IMG/VR virus record: IMGVR_UViG_3300031861_000375
Coordinates: 1 to 39,127 of that record
Source: a virus
Taxonomy: Duplodnaviria; Caudoviricetes
DNA: 39,127 nucleotides
Strand: one strand, 5' to 3'
Positions within the stretch are counted from its first letter, which is position 1. Every line of letters starts with the position of its first letter. The notes below the pieces were generated by a model. It was not told the DNA's origin. It ran no database searches and saw only the letters and a program-made list of their open reading frames with translations. Positions 28,231 through 39,127 of the stretch are shown one piece after another. The position numbers and the translations under genes were made by a program.

Positions 28231-28278
28231 AAAGCCCCGCATAAGCGAGGCTTTGAAAGAAAAGCCCCCTTTGGGGGC
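28231..28278 (-). terminator. Tandem terminator hairpins in late leader (tR'-like)
   Basis: GCCCCC-AAA-GGGGGC-TTTTCTTT (28278-28255) and AAAGCCTCGC-TTAT-GCGGGGCTTT (28254-28231). Confidence 0.7.
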
Positions 28279-28413
28279 TAGTGACCGGGGCGGTAACCGG
28301 TCGGGCGCACAGCACGTGCTAGGTGTTTATTGCTGACGCAGCAATAAATCTTGGGCACCTTGTACCCCTTGACATGCAACGCCCGCAACGGGAAAAAAAG
28401 GCATGGTTGCAAG

Positions 28414-32070: not shown

Positions 32071-32275
32071 GTTTCAGCTCCCGCAAATGCTGGCAATCAA
32101 CGCAGCACTGGCAACCCGGCACGGCCACGCGGCGTGCTTGGGGTATCTCAACCCCGCAGCTCTCGCACCACTCGGCGCTGGTGGCCTGGCCACCCACGCG
32201 GCGCTGGTGTTGCGCAAGTGCCTGCAGCAGCAGGTGCTCTGCATGCTCGTTGGCGTCATCTATCAGGTCAGCCAC
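32063..32275 (-). CDS. TraR/DksA C4-type zinc finger protein
   Basis: MADLIDDA, CESCGVEIPQARR, CVDCQ. Confidence 0.92.
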   Translation of the reverse strand: MADLIDDANEHAEHLLLQALAQHQRRVGGQATSAEWCESCGVEIPQARRVAVPGCQCCVDCQHLRELKRG

Positions 32276-32753
32276 GGTTGTCGCCCTCCATTGCTTGGCG
32301 GGCGCCAGCCATAATGCCCAGCAACTTGCTGATCAGCGCAAAGCCGTGCGCTTCCAGTTCGGCCACTTCGGCCCGCTCCCAGCGGCTGTCAGCAGCGCCG
32401 CCGGCCAGGCTGGCAACAAACTCACCCTCTTTGGCCAACAGTTTGCCCAGCGCCTGCATCGCATCGCGCGTGGCCGGCACGGGCACGGGCTGGTAACTCA
32501 CCACCCCGTACACCTGCTCAAACCACGTGCGCACGGCAGGGCCGCGCACAAGCTCAACAACACGCGCCAGGTCATCCGGTCTCAAATGGTGGTCAGGGTA
32601 AGCACCTGAAAGGCGCTTTTGAAACGGCCCGTAAGGCTCGCCAAGCATGGCGCAAACGGCCTTGTGGCCGCCGCGGAACTCACGGCAATCAGTGTCGATC
32701 GCCACATCCAGCGGCACCGCAGGGCCGCTGTAATCATCGTGCTGATGCGTCAT
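32268..32753 (-). CDS. CII-family phage regulatory protein
   Basis: GGHKAVCAMLG...KRLS...HHL pattern; position after cro; start at MTHQ with AGGA RBS. Confidence 0.7.
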   Translation of the reverse strand: MTHQHDDYSGPAVPLDVAIDTDCREFRGGHKAVCAMLGEPYGPFQKRLSGAYPDHHLRPDDLARVVELVRGPAVRTWFEQVYGVVSYQPVPVPATRDAMQALGKLLAKEGEFVASLAGGAADSRWERAEVAELEAHGFALISKLLGIMAGARQAMEGDNRG

Positions 32754-32826
32754 GGTAGTAAATCCTGCCAACTACCATAGCCATGGTCAGGGCAGCGCCC
32801 TATCCTATGCCTACAGCAGTCGCCAA

Positions 32827-33100
32827 ACCCCTGATACGTGCTGTGTCCCTGGGGAAAGGCTTGTTGAGGTAGTCAGGGGTGGTACCCGTCTACCGGAACG
32901 CAGGGGCTGGGCCTATTCTTGGTGAGTGGCGCCCAGTTCCCCGCCTCTATTGCACCTGCCGCCGTGGCGTCAGGTTTGTTGCTTTTGGCCTACTGGCCTA
33001 ATGCCGGCTCCGGTCTGCTGGTGAGGCTTCCGGAGCCAGCCCCGCTGCTAGTCCTCTTGCTGCTGTGCCCTACAGCGGGTAGTGACTTGGTGAGTGGCAC
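32827..33100 (+). ncRNA. Putative multi-hairpin regulatory RNA with repeated seed motifs
   Basis: Hairpins at 32827-32880, 32900-32944, 33006-33037, 33041-33079, 33082-33100 carry TGGTGAG or TGCTGTG(T)CCC; candidate -10 TATCCT at 32801; G-U pairs favour + strand. Confidence 0.55.
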
Positions 33101-33106
33101 GTCGAA

Positions 33107-33334
33107 TTAAGCGGCCTGCGAGCCGCGTAAATAAGCCCAATCAATGTCTTCACGCAGTGATTCACAGGTAACAGCGCCTTGGGTTTCGCGCTCAAGATTT
33201 ACAGCAAGCCCCGCACCCGCACGCCTGTTGCAGTAAGCCACCTGCTTGAGTTGACCAACAGAGGTTTGGCAGCGCTTCGCCAAGCACTCAAGCTGGGCCT
33301 TATCCAGCGTTTTCATGTAGTCGAGTAATTTCAT
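33107..33334 (-). CDS. cro: Cro-like (YdaS family) HTH regulator
   Basis: 75 aa, LAKRCQTSVGQLKQVA helix-turn-helix, GAVTCESLREDIDW; divergent from repressor. Confidence 0.85.
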   Translation of the reverse strand: MKLLDYMKTLDKAQLECLAKRCQTSVGQLKQVAYCNRRAGAGLAVNLERETQGAVTCESLREDIDWAYLRGSQAA

Positions 33335-33376
33335 TGCTAAGCCTCGCTTTACAGCGCCTTCCGTCTTGATGCTCGC

Positions 33377-33450
33377 AATATCTACCATTTAGTAACTAGC
33401 AGTCAATACTAAATAGTTCATTTACTTTTTTGTAACTGGTGCCGAAGATT
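33377..33450. promoter_or_regulatory. OR-like operator trio with divergent promoters
   Basis: TACCATTTAGTA (33383), TACTAAATAGTT (33407), TACTTTTTTGTA (33423); minus-strand TTGACT-N18-GATATT toward cro. Confidence 0.7.
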
Positions 33451-33455
33451 GCCTA

Positions 33456-34145
33456 ATGAAGAAAACAGATATCAGACGCGCCAATTTGCAGCTGCTGCTA
33501 GAGAGCCGCTTTGACGGTAACAAGAATGCGTTGGCCCGCGCGGTAGAACGCCAGCCAGGCTACGTTGCCGGCATGCTCCCTGACGCTAATAACCAACGCT
33601 CGTTTGGTGAAGCTAACGCTAGAGATTTCGAACGTCACTTAGGTCTACCTGATGGCTGGTTTGATTGCAGCCATGAGCAATCGCCGGTTAGCAGTACTGG
33701 TAATTACGTTATTGCCGAAGCAAGGCTGGAACCTGGCCCAGACCTGACCCGCCCATTCAAACGGACTCGAATATTAGGGATAGCGCAATTGGGCCCAGAC
33801 GGATATTGGGATGCCTTAACCGTTGCAGACGGCTGGCTAGACGTACCCACCACAGACCCCGACGCCTACTCACTGCGCGTAAAGGGTGACTCAATGGCCC
33901 CCGCCATTCGCAGCGGCTGGGTGGTGTGGTGCGAACCCAACCACCAGCTAATACCCGGCGAATACGTGATGGTGCGCTGCATAGACGGCCAAAGCATGGT
34001 GAAAGAACTGCTCTACGAGAATGCCGAAGAAGTCAGCTTAATGGCCGTAAACGATGGCTACGGCCGCGTGACCATCGCCCGCAGCGACATTGAGCAGATC
34101 CACTACGTGGGCGGCATCGTGCCACCGAGCAAAATCAAGTACTGA
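33456..34145 (+). CDS. cI: CI-like repressor with S24 autopeptidase domain
   Basis: N-terminal HTH; AQLG cleavage-region motif; LRVKGDSMAP (Ser) and MVKEL (Lys). Confidence 0.92.
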   Translation: MKKTDIRRANLQLLLESRFDGNKNALARAVERQPGYVAGMLPDANNQRSFGEANARDFERHLGLPDGWFDCSHEQSPVSSTGNYVIAEARLEPGPDLTRPFKRTRILGIAQLGPDGYWDALTVADGWLDVPTTDPDAYSLRVKGDSMAPAIRSGWVVWCEPNHQLIPGEYVMVRCIDGQSMVKELLYENAEEVSLMAVNDGYGRVTIARSDIEQIHYVGGIVPPSKIKY

Positions 34146-34184
34146 CCCGACTTACTCACACCCAACAGCAATGGAGCTATGCTA

Positions 34185-34337
34185 ATGTCTGACAAAGACC
34201 GCCGACCGCCCTCACAGCCTCCTCGCCCGACGCCGCAGGATAGGCCAACACCTAACCGCGAAATCAAGCACGATAGCGGCAACGGCCCCAACACTATTTC
34301 TGAGAGCCGACCCACACCCCCGAGACCCAAGCGATGA
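34185..34337 (+). CDS. Pro/Arg-rich disordered peptide (50 aa, not in ORF track)
   Basis: MSDKDRRPPSQPPRPTPQDRPTPNREIKHDSGNGPNTISESRPTPPRPKR; GGAG RBS 8 nt upstream; ATGA overlap with next gene. Confidence 0.7.
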   Translation: MSDKDRRPPSQPPRPTPQDRPTPNREIKHDSGNGPNTISESRPTPPRPKR

Positions 34338-34870
34338 CCGACGCCGACAAGGTTGAAGATGAACTCCACGAACTCCGCTTTTATGTGCAGCGCTGCATTC
34401 GCTACCACATGCGCAGAATGTCGTTCTTTATGCGCTGGAGTCGCTTCACTGCCTTTGTCGGCGTACTCTTTGGCTCTGCTGCCGTGGCGTCAATTCTTGC
34501 TGACGCTCCCGCTGCAGTGACAGCAGCAGCTGCGCTGTTGGTAACAGTGGCATCAGCCGTAGACCTTGTTATTGGCACTGGCCAGCGCGCCTCACTTCAT
34601 GGCGACCTGCGTAAATGCTACCTCGGCATTGAAGAGGAAATAATGGCCCAGGGCACTCCAACCCCGGAATCTCTACGGACAATGCGCAGCAGAATACGCC
34701 GCATTGAAGCAGACGAGCCGCCGACACTACCGGCGCTAGAACTGCTGGCCCGCAACGAAGTCATCCGCGCCATGTACACCCGCGAGGAGGCCACGCAGTA
34801 CCTGTCCAACGTGCCCTGGTACATGCGCATGACAGCTCACTGGATAGAGTGGGACACATCAGCCGCTTAA
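34334..34870 (+). CDS. Two-TM membrane protein, SLATT-like
   Basis: N-terminal helix (RCIRYH), two TM helices, then A..H..L...Y helical tail typical of SLATT architecture. Confidence 0.65.
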   Translation: MTDADKVEDELHELRFYVQRCIRYHMRRMSFFMRWSRFTAFVGVLFGSAAVASILADAPAAVTAAAALLVTVASAVDLVIGTGQRASLHGDLRKCYLGIEEEIMAQGTPTPESLRTMRSRIRRIEADEPPTLPALELLARNEVIRAMYTREEATQYLSNVPWYMRMTAHWIEWDTSAA

Positions 34871-34885
34871 GGCACTGCACACCAT

Positions 34886-34911
34886 AAAACCCCGCCCACC
34901 GCGGGGTTTTT
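34886..34911 (+). terminator. Intrinsic terminator of the cI-cargo transcript
   Basis: AAAACCCCGC-CCACC-GCGGGGTTTTT. Confidence 0.85.
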
Positions 34912-34913
34912 AT

Positions 34914-34973
34914 TACCTTCTAGAAAATCATTTACCAATTAGTATTGCCTGATTATTTACTACTTGGTACATT
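34914..34973 (+). promoter_or_regulatory. OL-like operators and PL-like sigma70 promoter
   Basis: TACCTTCTAGAA (34914), TACCAATTAGTA (34933), TACTACTTGGTA (34958); TTGCCT-N17-TACATT at 34945-34973. Confidence 0.78.
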
Positions 34974-35009
34974 GCATCCGTACCCCTCACCAAGGTCACG
35001 GAGCAACCC

Positions 35010-35198
35010 ATGGACACAGCACGCACCACCACCCGCTGCCCGGTGTATCTGCACCCGGCAGCGGCTTCTAACCCCGGCACCGTTCGCAGCATCCAACAGG
35101 CCACCGGCCAGCTGGTTGTAATCAACGGCACCCGCACCCAGCTCAAGCCCACCACCCCTGCCGATGCATTCGGCCCATTCGGGGGTGACGCCGCATGA
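35010..35198 (+). CDS. Small early phage protein
   Basis: 62 aa, GGAG RBS, first gene after PL-like promoter, ATGA-coupled to next gene. Confidence 0.7.
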   Translation: MDTARTTTRCPVYLHPAAASNPGTVRSIQQATGQLVVINGTRTQLKPTTPADAFGPFGGDAA

Positions 35199-35506
35199 GT
35201 ACCAATCACCCCACCATCGCCATGCAGTGTTTTATGCAGGGATTGGCCAACGAGATCAAAGACTGCCGCACCGCATCGTACGACTTTGCAGTTGAGGCGC
35301 GCGTATATAACGCCATTGGCCAAACCGTAGCAGCACTCAACCTGGAAGCGATCACCGGTCAACAGTACGACCGCCTCACAGCGATGGCGATGAATGCCGC
35401 CTCCCTGCGCCGTGAAGAACTGCTGCTTAAGCACCCTGCTCACAGCCGCGCCGCCCTGCAGTCTTACCAACAGCGCCAGGCCGAAAAAAAGCAGGTGACC
35501 GCATGA
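35195..35506 (+). CDS. Hypothetical early protein
   Basis: 103 aa, ATGA overlaps on both sides. Confidence 0.7.
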   Translation: MSTNHPTIAMQCFMQGLANEIKDCRTASYDFAVEARVYNAIGQTVAALNLEAITGQQYDRLTAMAMNAASLRREELLLKHPAHSRAALQSYQQRQAEKKQVTA

Positions 35507-36081
35507 GCCATCTTCTTATCGGCCTGCACGGCCTCGCCCGCACCGGTAAAGACACCGTAGCCCGCTACCTGGCCGCGCATTACGCGCTACTGTCCTACGC
35601 CTTTGCCGACCCGCTCAAGCAAGCGCTGGCACAGATGTTCAACCTTACCGAGGCCCAGCTGGAAGGCGCCGCCAAAGAGCAGAACATCGAGTGGCTGGGC
35701 AAATCTCCTCGCCAGCTGATGCAGTTGCTCGGTACCGAGTGGGGCCGTCACCTAGTGCACCCTGACCTTTGGGTGCTGCTGGCTGAGCAGAACATCGGCA
35801 ACCACCTGAGCATCGACCAAGCCCGCTACAGCGGCGTGGTAGTGCGTGATGTGCGCTTTGACAACGAAGCCAACTGGCTGCGCACGCGCGGCGGCAGCGT
35901 GGTGCACATCCTGCGCCCGGATGCACCCAGCGTGGCCAGCCACAGCAGCGAAAGCGGCCTGGTCATTCACGACAACGACTTCGTGCTGCGCAACGAAGGC
36001 AGCCTGGATGATCTGTACGCCCAGGTGGCCAAGCTGATGCTCATCTTGCAGGCCCGCCAACGCCTGCGTAACGCAGCCTGA
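35503..36081 (+). CDS. Deoxynucleoside monophosphate kinase
   Basis: GLARTGKDT P-loop, FADPLK, SPRQLMQLLGTEWGR, DVRFDNEA, HSSE. Confidence 0.92.
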   Translation: MSHLLIGLHGLARTGKDTVARYLAAHYALLSYAFADPLKQALAQMFNLTEAQLEGAAKEQNIEWLGKSPRQLMQLLGTEWGRHLVHPDLWVLLAEQNIGNHLSIDQARYSGVVVRDVRFDNEANWLRTRGGSVVHILRPDAPSVASHSSESGLVIHDNDFVLRNEGSLDDLYAQVAKLMLILQARQRLRNAA

Positions 36082-36091
36082 GGCCACGCCC

Positions 36092-36364
36092 ATGAACCGC
36101 GACCTCAACCAGGCTGCCGCCGTGCTCGGCATGGGCCCGCGCAAGCTGCGCGACCAGCTGCGCGAGCGCGGCATCATCAACCACCAGGGCGAGCTGGCGT
36201 GCCGCTACCGCGACAAAGGCCATCTCTATATCGAAACCCGCAGCCGCTGGAACAAAGCCATTAACGGCTGGACCCACTACGCCGCCGTAATGGTCACCGA
36301 GTCCGGCATTGCCTGGCTGGCCGAGCAGCTGGATATCAACATCACTATCAAATTGAGGGCTTAA
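36092..36364 (+). CDS. Antirepressor KilAC-like domain protein
   Basis: AAAVLGMGPRKLRDQLRERGII and VTESGIAWL motifs. Confidence 0.8.
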   Translation: MNRDLNQAAAVLGMGPRKLRDQLRERGIINHQGELACRYRDKGHLYIETRSRWNKAINGWTHYAAVMVTESGIAWLAEQLDINITIKLRA

Positions 36365-36366
36365 CC

Positions 36367-36756
36367 ATGTCTCTTACCCAAGAACAACGCGCCGCTATTG
36401 AATCCACCCCGCATGCTGCCATGGTCGCGGCGCTGGTAAAGCCAGGCCAAGACATCATCCAGCAGATGACACCCGGCAAGGCGAACGCCCTACACATGGC
36501 CGTTGGCGCATCGGGCGAAGCGGGCGAACTGCTGGACGCAATCAAGCGCTTTGTTATCTACAACAAACCGCTTGACCGCGAGAACGTGGTGGAAGAGCTA
36601 GGCGACCTTGAGTTCTTTATCGAAGGCCTGCGCGCTGAGTTAGGCATCAGCCGCGAAGAAACACTCACCGCCAACAAGTTCAAGTTGCTGGGCAAGCGCT
36701 ATGCCAGCGGCACCTACAGTGACGCGCAAGCCATTGCGCGCGCAGACAAGGCCTAA
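36367..36756 (+). CDS. MazG-like nucleotide pyrophosphohydrolase
   Basis: GEAGELLDAIK, EELGDLEF, N..KL..RY motifs. Confidence 0.88.
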   Translation: MSLTQEQRAAIESTPHAAMVAALVKPGQDIIQQMTPGKANALHMAVGASGEAGELLDAIKRFVIYNKPLDRENVVEELGDLEFFIEGLRAELGISREETLTANKFKLLGKRYASGTYSDAQAIARADKA

Positions 36757-36760
36757 CCGC

Positions 36761-37123
36761 ATGACCAGCCCAGCCAACCACGCTATCGGCGCGCTCAAGC
36801 TGGCCGTGCTGAACATCGACCACCCTGGCGTTATTCGCCCATCCATCGTGCAAACCGCAGCGGTAGAGGCCATTGGCCGTCTGCAGAGCAACCAGCCGCA
36901 CGCCGATGACCTCGTGCGCCTTTACACCCAGCTGCTGGCCGTTACGCCAGCGGGCTACCTCCCGCACGTCACGCTCACCCAAGCGAGCAGCAGCGCCTTT
37001 GGCTGCGTCATCACCGACGCCGCCGGCAATGTGGTGGATCGCCAGGTGGGTAAAACCACCGAAGGCATTGCTGAGATTATCCGCCTGCGCTTCACGCGCC
37101 CGATTGCGGAGGCCACCCCGTGA
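36761..37123 (+). CDS. Hypothetical early protein
   Basis: 120 aa from MTSPANHAIG; GTGA overlap with next gene. Confidence 0.65.
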   Translation: MTSPANHAIGALKLAVLNIDHPGVIRPSIVQTAAVEAIGRLQSNQPHADDLVRLYTQLLAVTPAGYLPHVTLTQASSSAFGCVITDAAGNVVDRQVGKTTEGIAEIIRLRFTRPIAEATP

Positions 37124-37368
37124 GCAGCCGACACGCCCACCTCAAACAGGCCTACCCCATTGGCTACCTGACCATTGAGCAGGTACTGGCACTGGAACCA
37201 CTGGCCAACGTACCCAGCCTGCGCGCCCTGCGCCGCCACGTGGAGTCCGGCCGGATAGACCTCCGCCTGAGCCGGCTCAACGACCTACCCGGCGCCCGCT
37301 GGATTGTTTACACGCACCACCTGGCCGAATGGCTCGACCGCCAAGAAGCCGCCGCCGACGCGGCATAA
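37120..37368 (+). CDS. PrtN-family (pyocin activator-like) DNA-binding protein
   Basis: LRRHVESGRIDL...VYTHHLAEWLD pattern, 82 aa, GGAGG RBS. Confidence 0.72.
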   Translation: MSSRHAHLKQAYPIGYLTIEQVLALEPLANVPSLRALRRHVESGRIDLRLSRLNDLPGARWIVYTHHLAEWLDRQEAAADAA

Positions 37369-37410
37369 CCCGCCCCACCAAGGGCACACAACCACCAAGA
37401 GGCACAGCAC

Positions 37411-37758
37411 ATGAAAGCAACCGATACCACCGAGTTTCTAGGCTCACTCAATGCCGGCGTATTTGCTCAGCAAGTAGGCCGCGCCCTTTCCGATGTAGCC
37501 GCGGGCGTTGTCGACCACGGCAAAAAGGGCAAGGTCGTTCTCACCTTCGAGCTCAGCCAAATTGGCGAGAGCAACCAGGTGAAGGTCAACCACAAGCTGG
37601 ACTTCGCCCAACCCACCAAACGCGGCACCAAGCGCGAAGACACAGCGCTGGATACGCCCATGTACGTCACCGCCAACGGCATCGAGCTGTTCCAAAACGA
37701 CCCAACAGCGCAGCTGTTCAACAAGCAAGACACCCCGGTGCGCGCCCAAGAGGTTTAA
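37411..37758 (+). CDS. Conserved prophage protein (YfdP-like), partner of DUF2303
   Basis: LNAGVF...ALSDVAAGVVDHGKKGKV, TPMYV motifs; directly before DUF2303 gene. Confidence 0.72.
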   Translation: MKATDTTEFLGSLNAGVFAQQVGRALSDVAAGVVDHGKKGKVVLTFELSQIGESNQVKVNHKLDFAQPTKRGTKREDTALDTPMYVTANGIELFQNDPTAQLFNKQDTPVRAQEV

Positions 37759-37807
37759 GCGCGCCGTTCTGTAGTAATTCCAAGCCACTCACCAAGGAAA
37801 CACCTCA

Positions 37808-38638
37808 ATGTTTAACAAAGAAACCTTACAGCACATCGAATCCCAAGCACTGGTTGCAGCAGCTAAGCCCATTAGCATCGACGGCGGCAGTAACGTGGTC
37901 GTGCTGCCGGACTCAGTCAGCATGCACAGCCTGGAGCGCTACCAGCCGATGCGCGATCGCTTTCGCGCCAGCCTGAAAACCCAGTCCCTGCGAGACTTCA
38001 GCAAGTATGTCGAGCGCCACAATGACACCGACCTCGGGCTACTTGCCGGCGGCTTTATCGACCAAGACGCCATGTCGGCCACCGTCATTTTCAACCTGGG
38101 TACGCCCGACGAAGCCGGCCACGGCGATGACCGTGCCACCCTCACCCTCAAACCGTCCGCTGCCTACACCGCCGTTCAGTCGATTGTCGGCAAACCCCTC
38201 AGCCAGCAAGCCCTGGCCGAATGGCTGGAAGACTGGGCACCGAACATCACCGCCACAGCGGGTGACGAAACACTGACCATCGCGGCAGCCATCAGCGGCG
38301 TGCGCAAGATGACCATCAAAGCCACCAGCCAGCGTGACAGCTCGGTCGGTGACCTCAGCGCGACCCGCAGCGCAATGGACGAAATCGAAGCCAAAAGCCA
38401 AGAAACCCTGCCAACCGTCTTCCTGTTCCAGGTCGTGCCGTTCGAGGGCTTGGCAGAATCGACCATCACCCTGCGCCTGTCGGCTATCACCGGCGAAGAC
38501 AAGCCCGTACTCAAGCTGCGCTGGGTCGGGGAAGAGGCCCAGCGCGAAGGCTTCGCCATTGAGTTCAAGCACGTGCTCGAGCAAGAAGTCGGCGGCTTCG
38601 TACCCCTGACCATCGGCACCTTCGCTATCGGCAACTAA
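37808..38638 (+). CDS. DUF2303 (YfdQ-like) family protein
   Basis: FNLGTPDEAGHGD, LSQQALAEWLEDW, PFEGL motifs. Confidence 0.85.
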   Translation: MFNKETLQHIESQALVAAAKPISIDGGSNVVVLPDSVSMHSLERYQPMRDRFRASLKTQSLRDFSKYVERHNDTDLGLLAGGFIDQDAMSATVIFNLGTPDEAGHGDDRATLTLKPSAAYTAVQSIVGKPLSQQALAEWLEDWAPNITATAGDETLTIAAAISGVRKMTIKATSQRDSSVGDLSATRSAMDEIEAKSQETLPTVFLFQVVPFEGLAESTITLRLSAITGEDKPVLKLRWVGEEAQREGFAIEFKHVLEQEVGGFVPLTIGTFAIGN

Positions 38639-38692
38639 CCCACCACCCACTGCCGGCCTCACCAGCCGGCAGCAACCCAAGGGACACAGCAC

Positions 38693-39127
38693 ATGACCAC
38701 TATCAACATCATCTTCACCGCCTTTACAGTCTGCGCGCTGGCTGGGCTGATCGCCTACCGCATAGGCCTCAGCACAGGCGCCCGCGCCCAACGGCTGAAA
38801 AACCAAACACTGCGCAACGCTCAAGCCAAGCTCATCCAGAGCGCGAACAGCTCAATCGAGAGCCTAACCGCCCGCATGGCTGCCCTGCTCACCCGGCAAA
38901 CGGAAACAGCCGAGCGCGCCACCCAATGCGAGGCCCGCGCCAACGCTCTGGCCACCAAACAAGAGAGCCACCAGGCGCAGCTCGAAGCCATCATGCAAGA
39001 CGCCGACGACCGCGTAGCCACCTACGCCCGCCGCGCCAACCCCTTCAACCATGAAGACCGCATCACCCTGCAAGCCGCCGCCAACCAGCTGGACGTGGCC
39101 GCCAACACTTACTCTGGCCTGCAAGCC
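38693..39127 (+). CDS. Membrane-anchored coiled-coil phage protein, 3' truncated by window edge
   Basis: MTTINIIFTAFTVCALAGLIAYRIG then helical region; frame open to window end; AAGGGA RBS. Confidence 0.7.
   Translation, partial: MTTINIIFTAFTVCALAGLIAYRIGLSTGARAQRLKNQTLRNAQAKLIQSANSSIESLTARMAALLTRQTETAERATQCEARANALATKQESHQAQLEAIMQDADDRVATYARRANPFNHEDRITLQAAANQLDVAANTYSGLQA

Follow-up and report, generated by a model that had tools for sequence, protein, structure and literature searches.

The window analysed here is a provirus record of 39,127 nt (IMGVR_UViG_3300031861_000375, Caudoviricetes), in which a hairpin array locates to the gap between a cro-like and a CII-like gene (Table 1). The minus strand, leftwards, carries the cro-like gene, the CII-like gene, a DksA-like zinc finger and a primase. 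On the plus strand, rightwards of the array, a cI-like repressor gene is followed by the early-left operon. This operon contains gene 35010, a dNMP kinase, a KilAC-domain gene, a MazG-like gene and a PrtN/excisionase-like gene, and further a yfdP-like gene (37411, named after an annotated relative), the DUF2303 (yfdQ) gene 37808 and gene 38693. Two cultured phages match the window DNA, both infecting Pseudomonas stutzeri, and a CII homologue is present in nine Pseudomonas phage records.

The early-left promoter-like site was read from the sequence. It is overlapped by 12-bp imperfect palindromes (34933-34944, 34958-34969) that resemble those near the cro promoter. Counting both early promoters (33383-33418, 34933-34969), there are four such 12-bp imperfect palindromes, similar to one another and likely CI operators. 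Two genes of unknown function lie 3' of cI at 34179-34870, one encoding a proline-rich protein of 52 aa and the other a 178 aa protein of PHROG 11791; they are possible accessory cargo. A strong hairpin stands 3' of them near 34890-34915.

Table 1. Coordinates of the array, its presumptive targets and neighbouring features in the window
Feature	Position	Strand	Remarks
Late leader before the first late (holin-like) gene	28257..28345	-	a'-like element 28307-28318 in a GUGCU-loop hairpin; terminator-like stem
CII-like activator gene (186/CP76 type)	32268..32753	-	PHROG 101, E=3e-21
6-11-6 inverted repeat, candidate CII operator	32754..32776		one base before the -35
Promoter-like site	32778..32806	+	-35 TAGCCA, 17 nt, -10 TATCCT (32801-32806); predicted start near 32813
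H1 hairpin, a' seed 32837-32850	32813..32866	+	base stem holds an invariant G-U (29/29 rows)
H2 hairpin, conserved UGGUA-type loop, no target found	32868..32894	+	both sides change in 4/5 outer pairs
H3 hairpin, b' seed 32918-32930	32900..32944	+	both sides change in 6/9 counted pairs
Terminator-like stem, U-rich tail	32954..32986	+	conserved in long-type loci
H4 hairpin, b-type loop 33017-33027 matching the gene 38693 leader	33003..33039	+	strand of action uncertain
H5 hairpin, a-type loop	33042..33079	+	best duplex at the yfdP start region
H6 weak hairpin, second b' seed copy 33086-33098	33082..33100	+	-4.6 kcal/mol, barely a hairpin
cro-like gene	33107..33334	-	probable start 33334; ORF list start 33388
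cI-like repressor gene, peptidase S24 domain	33456..34145	+	
Early-left promoter-like site	34945..34973	+	TTGCCT, 17 nt, TACATT
Target pair 1, gene 35010 (first of operon)	b site 34986-34994, a site 35012-35023	+	b in leader hairpin loop; a over codons 1-5
Target 2, yfdP-like gene 37411	a site 37396..37409	+	between ribosome-binding site and ATG
Target 3, DUF2303 (yfdQ) gene 37808	b site 37784..37796	+	just 5' of the ribosome-binding site
Target pair 4, gene 38693	38650..38692	+	b site 38656-38666 in hairpin loop; a site 38680-38692 directly before ATG

In the long form found in the window, H1 with its a' seed, H2 and H3 with its b' seed are followed by the terminator-like stem and then by H4-H6. 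The terminator-like stem parts the first two seeds from the last three, and the last three are absent in some relatives; the arrays of L004, L007, L039 and L040 stop just past this stem. A terminator scan does not call the stem, which is probably leaky. The shortest form of the array, about 85 nt, consists of one a' and one b' hairpin, and in other relatives the seeds are repeated several times ahead of a U-run. Across the long-form stems (H2, H3 and terminator-like), 13 of 23 pairs change on both sides with 94% of the cells paired, and none of 500 shuffles reaches 13 of 23, a figure that related sequences inflate. The covariance model of the short form does not pick out the window's long form (best E=0.37), so what links the two forms is their shared position, promoter and seeds, and no single model covers both.

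Several further traits of the arrays were noticed. The invariant 5' end of the predicted RNA, ACAGC (32812-32846 region), can pair with the RNA's own a' seed, and the alignment fold prefers this pairing over the long H1 stem; it could be a folding switch masking the seed. Short-form b' hairpins (e.g. L069:8631-8722) are usually followed by ACC, like the 3' end of RNase P substrates. L185, L188 and L189 have further seed-type hairpins, a second set, in the cII leader; these lie outside the predicted RNA, in the stretch from the cII start to the palindrome-promoter unit. Distant CII relatives (L200-L206) have arrays of about 250-340 nt with several GUGGUG loops (L200 is mis-sized); those of L200-L203 end in a hairpin and a U-run, and L201-L206 have sites matching array loops at an early gene start.

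Seeds, sites and their co-variation

An earlier note, made from the window sequence, had listed exact antisense matches between the array loops and the start regions of four early genes, and all of them are found where it placed them. The H1 loop (32838-32850) is the exact reverse complement of 38680-38692 over 13 nt, and the extended pairing of about 20 nt claimed for gene 38693 holds as well. The same loop (32837-32848) matches 35012-35023 over 12 nt. The b' seed of H3 (32918-32930) and its copy in H6 (33086-33098) each match 37784-37796 over 13 nt, while H4 (33017-33027) matches 38656-38666 over 11 nt and H5 (33061-33069) matches 37401-37409 over 9 nt. One additional match of 9 nt, absent from that note, joins 32918-32926 to 34986-34994 in the gene 35010 leader. 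Added up over the four start regions, the longest matches come to 47 nt. This sum is reached by none of 1472 control windows of 300 nt from the same genome (mean 27.6, max 40) and by none of 2000 dinucleotide shuffles (max 41); because the four regions were picked after the matches had been seen, the cross-phage tests below are stronger than this chance test.

In duplex scans, every one of the five seed loops has its best site at one of three starts among the four: that of H1 at 38693, with 35010 a close second, those of H3 and H6 at 37808, that of H4 at the 38693 leader hairpin and that of H5 at 37411. The best duplex sites of the unseeded terminator-like stem lie inside genes. The b sites occupy mRNA hairpin loops (35010, 38693) or stand just 5' of the ribosome-binding site (yfdQ), and the a sites lie over the spacer, the start codon or the first codons at three genes. 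Together, the target sites mark the first gene of the operon and the three starts that follow a gap of 42-54 nt. At the other six, where the gap is -4 to 10 nt, no match reaches loop size except one of 10 nt to H2. This layout fits control of every independent translation start, although it is only the gaps that leave room for such sites.

The array belongs to a family across Pseudomonadaceae prophages. We collected 136 loci via the CII protein and the first early gene. Of 301 genomes sampled within the family, 53 contain a CII homologue (57 matches), not all of them checked for the array. The first co-variation set comprises 120 loci with both the array and the first gene, in 24 clusters. At each of the six site windows the match is better for own than for foreign arrays, with permutation p from 1e-5 to 0.002, values that, like those below, overstate independence because the clusters are related by descent. 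The mean match is 10.1 nt for own versus 7.2 nt for foreign arrays at the gene-35010 b site (n=24 clusters), 10.3 versus 9.1 nt at its a site, 11.2 versus 8.0 nt at yfdQ (n=19) and 10.3 versus 9.3 nt at yfdP; both sites of the gene after yfdQ are also better matched by own arrays. At four control start regions, the matches are only 6-7 nt (p=0.76, 0.99, 0.41 and 0.049). At the first-gene b site, the exact match is shorter than 9 nt in seven of the 24 clusters; G-U pairs account for several of them (L043, L133), and L003 is a true mismatch, without any matching b seed. In this set the arrays of L003, L061, L107 and L134 are over-long, and the promoter is misplaced in L038-L040, L059, L060 and L062, so their a' loop is lost.

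The second set covers 40 of the 57 CII matches and gives 22 clusters with the first gene, some loci coming from clades of the first set; L182, whose first-gene start is mis-called, was kept in. Own arrays again match better, with 9.9 versus 6.6 nt at the b site and 10.0 versus 7.2 nt at the a site (n=22 clusters, p=1e-5), and the coding-region controls are null (p=0.32, 0.53). New seed-site classes appeared, for instance GGUCAGAG versus CUCUGACC and GCAUGGUUGUGU versus ACACAACCAUGC. Seed-target co-variation among relatives, which the earlier note had proposed as a check, is thus positive in both locus sets. An exact 7-nt seed class for the own first-gene site is present in 104 of 122 unique rows, spread over 13 classes that were set after seeing the data and with L038-L040, L059, L060, L062, L045 and L182 left out; of the 18 rows left unmatched, several fit another class in the second set. 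We place 22 seed/site changes on the CII tree, a number to be taken as an upper guide since block exchange can carry seed and site together.

Among individual hairpins, it is H3 that fits the yfdQ site best in 31 of 36 loci. The H3 loop has degenerated in 4 loci, and the yfdQ site is gone in 3 (L003, L010, L011). The hairpin array is a real, conserved and co-evolving RNA element.

In L003, L005, L010 and L011, we notice that an old variant H3 loop fits none of the tested early-left sites of its own phage; it might be aimed at another phage or at the host.

The a' element also recurs in the late leader, where 42 of 46 unique regions 5' of the first late gene contain it. On the late strand it has the orientation of a seed and is followed by a hairpin and a terminator-like stem. 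Own and foreign matches do not differ here (8.42 vs 8.47 nt, p=0.57, 12 clusters), in a comparison limited by the scant variation of the a sites. The late leader may be a second seed-bearing short RNA, or a protein signal.

The promoter-like site and the predicted RNA

The CII-like protein matches Pfam Phage_CP76 below the family cut-off, and many of its homologues carry PF06892. The eight best fold matches of its predicted model (pLDDT 86) are all to the phage 186 regulator (best E=6e-4), in entries which we take to be 186 CII. The fold match is modest (TM-score 0.45), and sequence searches of the protein against solved structures found nothing. On the fold matches, a lambda-type CII identity was dropped and the 186 type preferred. 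We predict the protein to be the activator of the antisense-RNA promoter.

The 6-11-6 palindrome beside this promoter keeps at least 5 of 6 matches at the same spacing in 55 of 68 unique promoter regions, and its symmetry averages 5.1 of 6 over the 68 regions versus 0.6-1.8 when the arms are shifted. The sequence of the repeat differs between clades while the symmetry is retained. In L185, L188 and L189 it travels with the promoter though both are detached from the cII start. A cII mRNA hairpin is a less likely reading of the palindrome, since it accompanies the promoter when parted from that start.

The candidate -10 named in the earlier note is present at 32801-32806, with a -35-like hexamer 17 nt upstream. 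For the counts, 131 sequences with a CII start, the window included, were reduced to 97 unique regions, and the script takes the best match to the window's hexamers; TAGCCA is present in 83 and TATCCT in 66, separated by a spacer of 17 or 18 nt and of variable sequence. The window's promoter is a weak consensus match that scores below the threshold of the sigma-70 scan.

The establishment context suggested by that note stands, with a CII gene and a conserved promoter/palindrome geometry. Its model, lambda PRE, is replaced by 186 pE, because the CII here folds like the 186 regulator. The 186 CII site is an inverted repeat, with its half-sites beside the -35. 186 CII activates one promoter, pE, which is convergent to the lytic promoter (PMC7708051). 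As for membership among 186-type establishment promoters, an adjacent CII of the 186 fold is present, with modest scores. We infer the CII dependence of the promoter from fold, position and geometry.

On this sequence evidence, we consider it probable that the array encodes a CII-driven antisense RNA with multiple targets, which represses the early-left operon; both its transcription and the repression are predicted. After infection, CII would accumulate and bind the 6-11-6 palindrome, and the weak promoter would fire near 32813. The core RNA of about 175 nt, with the a' loop, the UGGUA hairpin and the b' loop, would stop at the leaky terminator. Read-through would append three more loops and may continue antisense to cro towards cI. 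The b' loop would pair first with b sites in mRNA hairpin loops or unstructured leaders. The a' loop would then cover the ribosome-binding spacer or the first codons, blocking translation.

The four targets are the operon's only starts not translationally coupled upstream, so blocking them would silence the coupled genes too. These include the KilAC-domain antirepressor-like, the excisionase-like and the nucleotide-metabolism genes, which would be silenced before CI repression completes. The KilAC-domain gene's own start carries no site, and its control by the array RNA would be indirect, via coupling.

Acting strand and alternative readings

The orientation of promoter and palindrome, the invariant G-U in H1, G-U changes in the b' stem of the short form and the U-rich ends favour the plus strand as the acting one, although the matter is not closed. 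Co-variation alone cannot assign the strand, since a minus-strand copy of the same site would co-vary equally. The core stems have G-U and A-C pairs at 13:4, near the shuffles (40:18). The earlier note held that the 32900-32944 stem favours the plus strand; this stem does fold better there (-27.3 versus -20.9 on the minus strand), but it also contains one A-C pair. Sequencing runs containing a related array, that of L036, were compared at the level of contigs (8 of at least 21 runs). Seven have flat cover over early, switch and replication genes, which is DNA-like, and one has a single contig across the array and its flanks; these patterns speak neither for nor against the RNA.

The extension bears on a second reading, which is compatible with the antisense RNA and which we regard as possible, though clearly the lesser likelihood. 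In this reading the core RNA (32813 to ~32985) acts as proposed, and H4-H6 are b-a-b targets on the minus strand, in the cro-cII mRNA, through which the RNA would curb the rightward operon. The stems of H4-H6 lean to the minus strand, with G-U and A-C pairs at 3:9 on the plus strand versus 27:12 in shuffles, and they are positioned past the terminator-like stem. Read on the minus strand, b and a are 26 nt apart, as they are in the targets (26 and 28 nt). The seed-type hairpins of L185, L188 and L189 lie upstream of the promoter, in the cII leader. As targets, H4-H6 would resemble the target pairs flanking c4 and CI RNA. On the other hand, H4 or H6 follows early-left sites in L005, L010 and L011, whose H3 loop fits no site, and L195 has lost its H3 seed but kept H4 and H5, which match its own targets. 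At the gene 38693 leader site, the extension is a better match than the core in 24 of 33 loci (many of them near-identical relatives), H4 being the hairpin concerned. Repeated seeds also precede a clear plus-strand U-run in L080, L096 and L201-L203. The earlier claim that all five hairpins are seeds on one RNA is therefore kept in part: the loops do follow specific targets, but the split by the terminator-like stem, the absence of the extension in some relatives and its minus-leaning stems count against it. We favour H4-H6 as extra seeds reached by read-through of the proposed RNA, and a double role as seed and target is possible.

A different proposal is that the RNA is made steadily in the lysogen, independently of CII, and provides a second immunity factor, directed at superinfecting phages whose a/b sites match. 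The rapid, matched divergence of seed and site does resemble the diversification of immunity types, and c4 separates P1 from P7 likewise (PMC5320573, PMC12197685). We hold this unlikely: the poor -35 with its fixed adjoining palindrome suggests dependence on an activator, and cII sits in an operon expected to be repressed by CI.

A similarly low probability is given to the idea that the plus strand has no function, and that the motifs are CA-rich a/b boxes in the same sense on both early transcripts, read by a third factor such as an RNA-binding protein or an antitermination complex. The minus-strand loops read identically to the targets, the fold z-score of the whole interval is better on the minus strand (-2.57) than on the plus strand (-1.63), and the wobble strand test on seed-target mismatches shows no significant lean, with 21 G-U versus 16 A-C (p=0.26). 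Moreover, a GUGCU-loop hairpin recurs before the terminator of the late leader, as a signal for protein binding might. However, the 13 b-type classes with their matched changes are easier to explain by base pairing than by one protein family. It is also the plus strand that the conserved promoter and palindrome face and on which the base stem of H1 has its invariant G-U, and the late-leader element is in seed orientation on the late strand.

We think it very improbable that the RNA activates by opening the leader hairpin of gene 35010: the b site is in the loop of this hairpin and the 3' arm includes part of the GGAG of the ribosome-binding site, but at three genes the a sites cover the spacer, the start codon or the first codons, and pairing there should keep the ribosome off. 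Chance matches or functionless relics of inverted duplications, to which the likeness of H4 to an inverted copy of the gene 38693 leader hairpin might point, are scarcely credible and are largely refuted by the matched changes in divergent phages, the stem co-variation and the above-chance matches.

Beyond the antisense RNA itself, the observations can be joined in a more speculative scheme, which we offer tentatively. The array may form an expandable, guide-like code, in which CII drives a transcript with a varying number of seed hairpins, each fitted to one uncoupled start and maybe cut into units. The late-leader RNA would reuse this code against early genes during lytic growth, and the seed classes would amount to RNA immunity types among related phages.

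Teaching presents the lysis-lysogeny switch in lambda-like and 186-like phages as a circuit of proteins. If the antisense RNA is real, this circuit would gain a new arm: a widespread RNA, transcribed from the establishment promoter region, that acts in trans to silence the other early operon. With at least 13 sequence classes of seed and target found in nature, swaps between pairs give a direct test of the mechanism. The pairs are also a source of compact, orthogonal RNA regulators for use in Pseudomonas, and the array RNA is a possible explanation of immunity patterns that repressor type alone does not predict.

Relation to known phage RNAs

Our searches of the literature, made at the level of titles and abstracts, mostly without subscription papers and with the c4-2 motif supplement outside their scope, found no description of such an RNA. 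The seed strings are absent from one supplement file of PMC2864571, in which alignment gaps can hide them. The array matches no Rfam family in the Rfam/Infernal search that the earlier note had proposed. The Rfam C4 model (RF01695) has no match in the window at the gathering score. Relaxing the threshold to E<=10 brings up no hit in 32600-39127 or the whole record, nor does E<=1 in ten related loci.

By analogy, we take the array to work like P1 c4 and P4 CI RNA. As in c4, two loop seeds (a' and b') face paired sites at the ribosome-binding region and co-vary with them. In the c4 RNA of P1 and P7, changes of seed and site set the specificity (PMC5320573, PMC12197685). The architecture differs, in that c4 packs three stems, a tetraloop and the a' and b' loops into about 77 nt, whereas the array is a chain of separate hairpins, two in the short form and variable in the number of seed hairpins. 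Unlike c4, it has its own promoter opposite to the host operon, and its four target genes lie 2-6 kb away in another operon. In c4 and P4 CI, RNA and flanking targets share one transcript; the main targets of the array lie beyond cI in the early-left operon, which has its own promoter-like site. H4-H6 as flanking targets of the c4/CI kind are conceivable only on the opposite strand. The array is not classed as C4, since it fails the model, the fold and the same-transcript layout. For a c4/CI-type maturation by RNase P, the only lead here is the ACC after the short-form hairpins.

P4 CI RNA (seqA, seqC) and Gifsy-1 IsrK are small phage RNAs in which short pairing shuts off lytic functions (PMC4825925, PMC3632133). 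P4 CI is processed from the transcript that it controls and acts through premature termination, whereas the array would act on the translation starts of another operon.

In its position, the promoter-like site resembles 186 pE and lambda PRE: it lies in the cro-cII gap, faces cI and adjoins the CII gene. To our knowledge, neither the 186 pE nor the lambda PRE transcript carries seed hairpins aimed at other genes. Lambda OOP and P22 sar are small antisense RNAs of the lysis-lysogeny circuit (PMC7067206, PMC12197685), and lambda PaQ is a CII-activated promoter (PMC7708051). The PaQ and sar RNAs, like OOP, overlap a single target with full complementarity, whereas the array RNA would use loop seeds of 9-14 nt on several distant targets.
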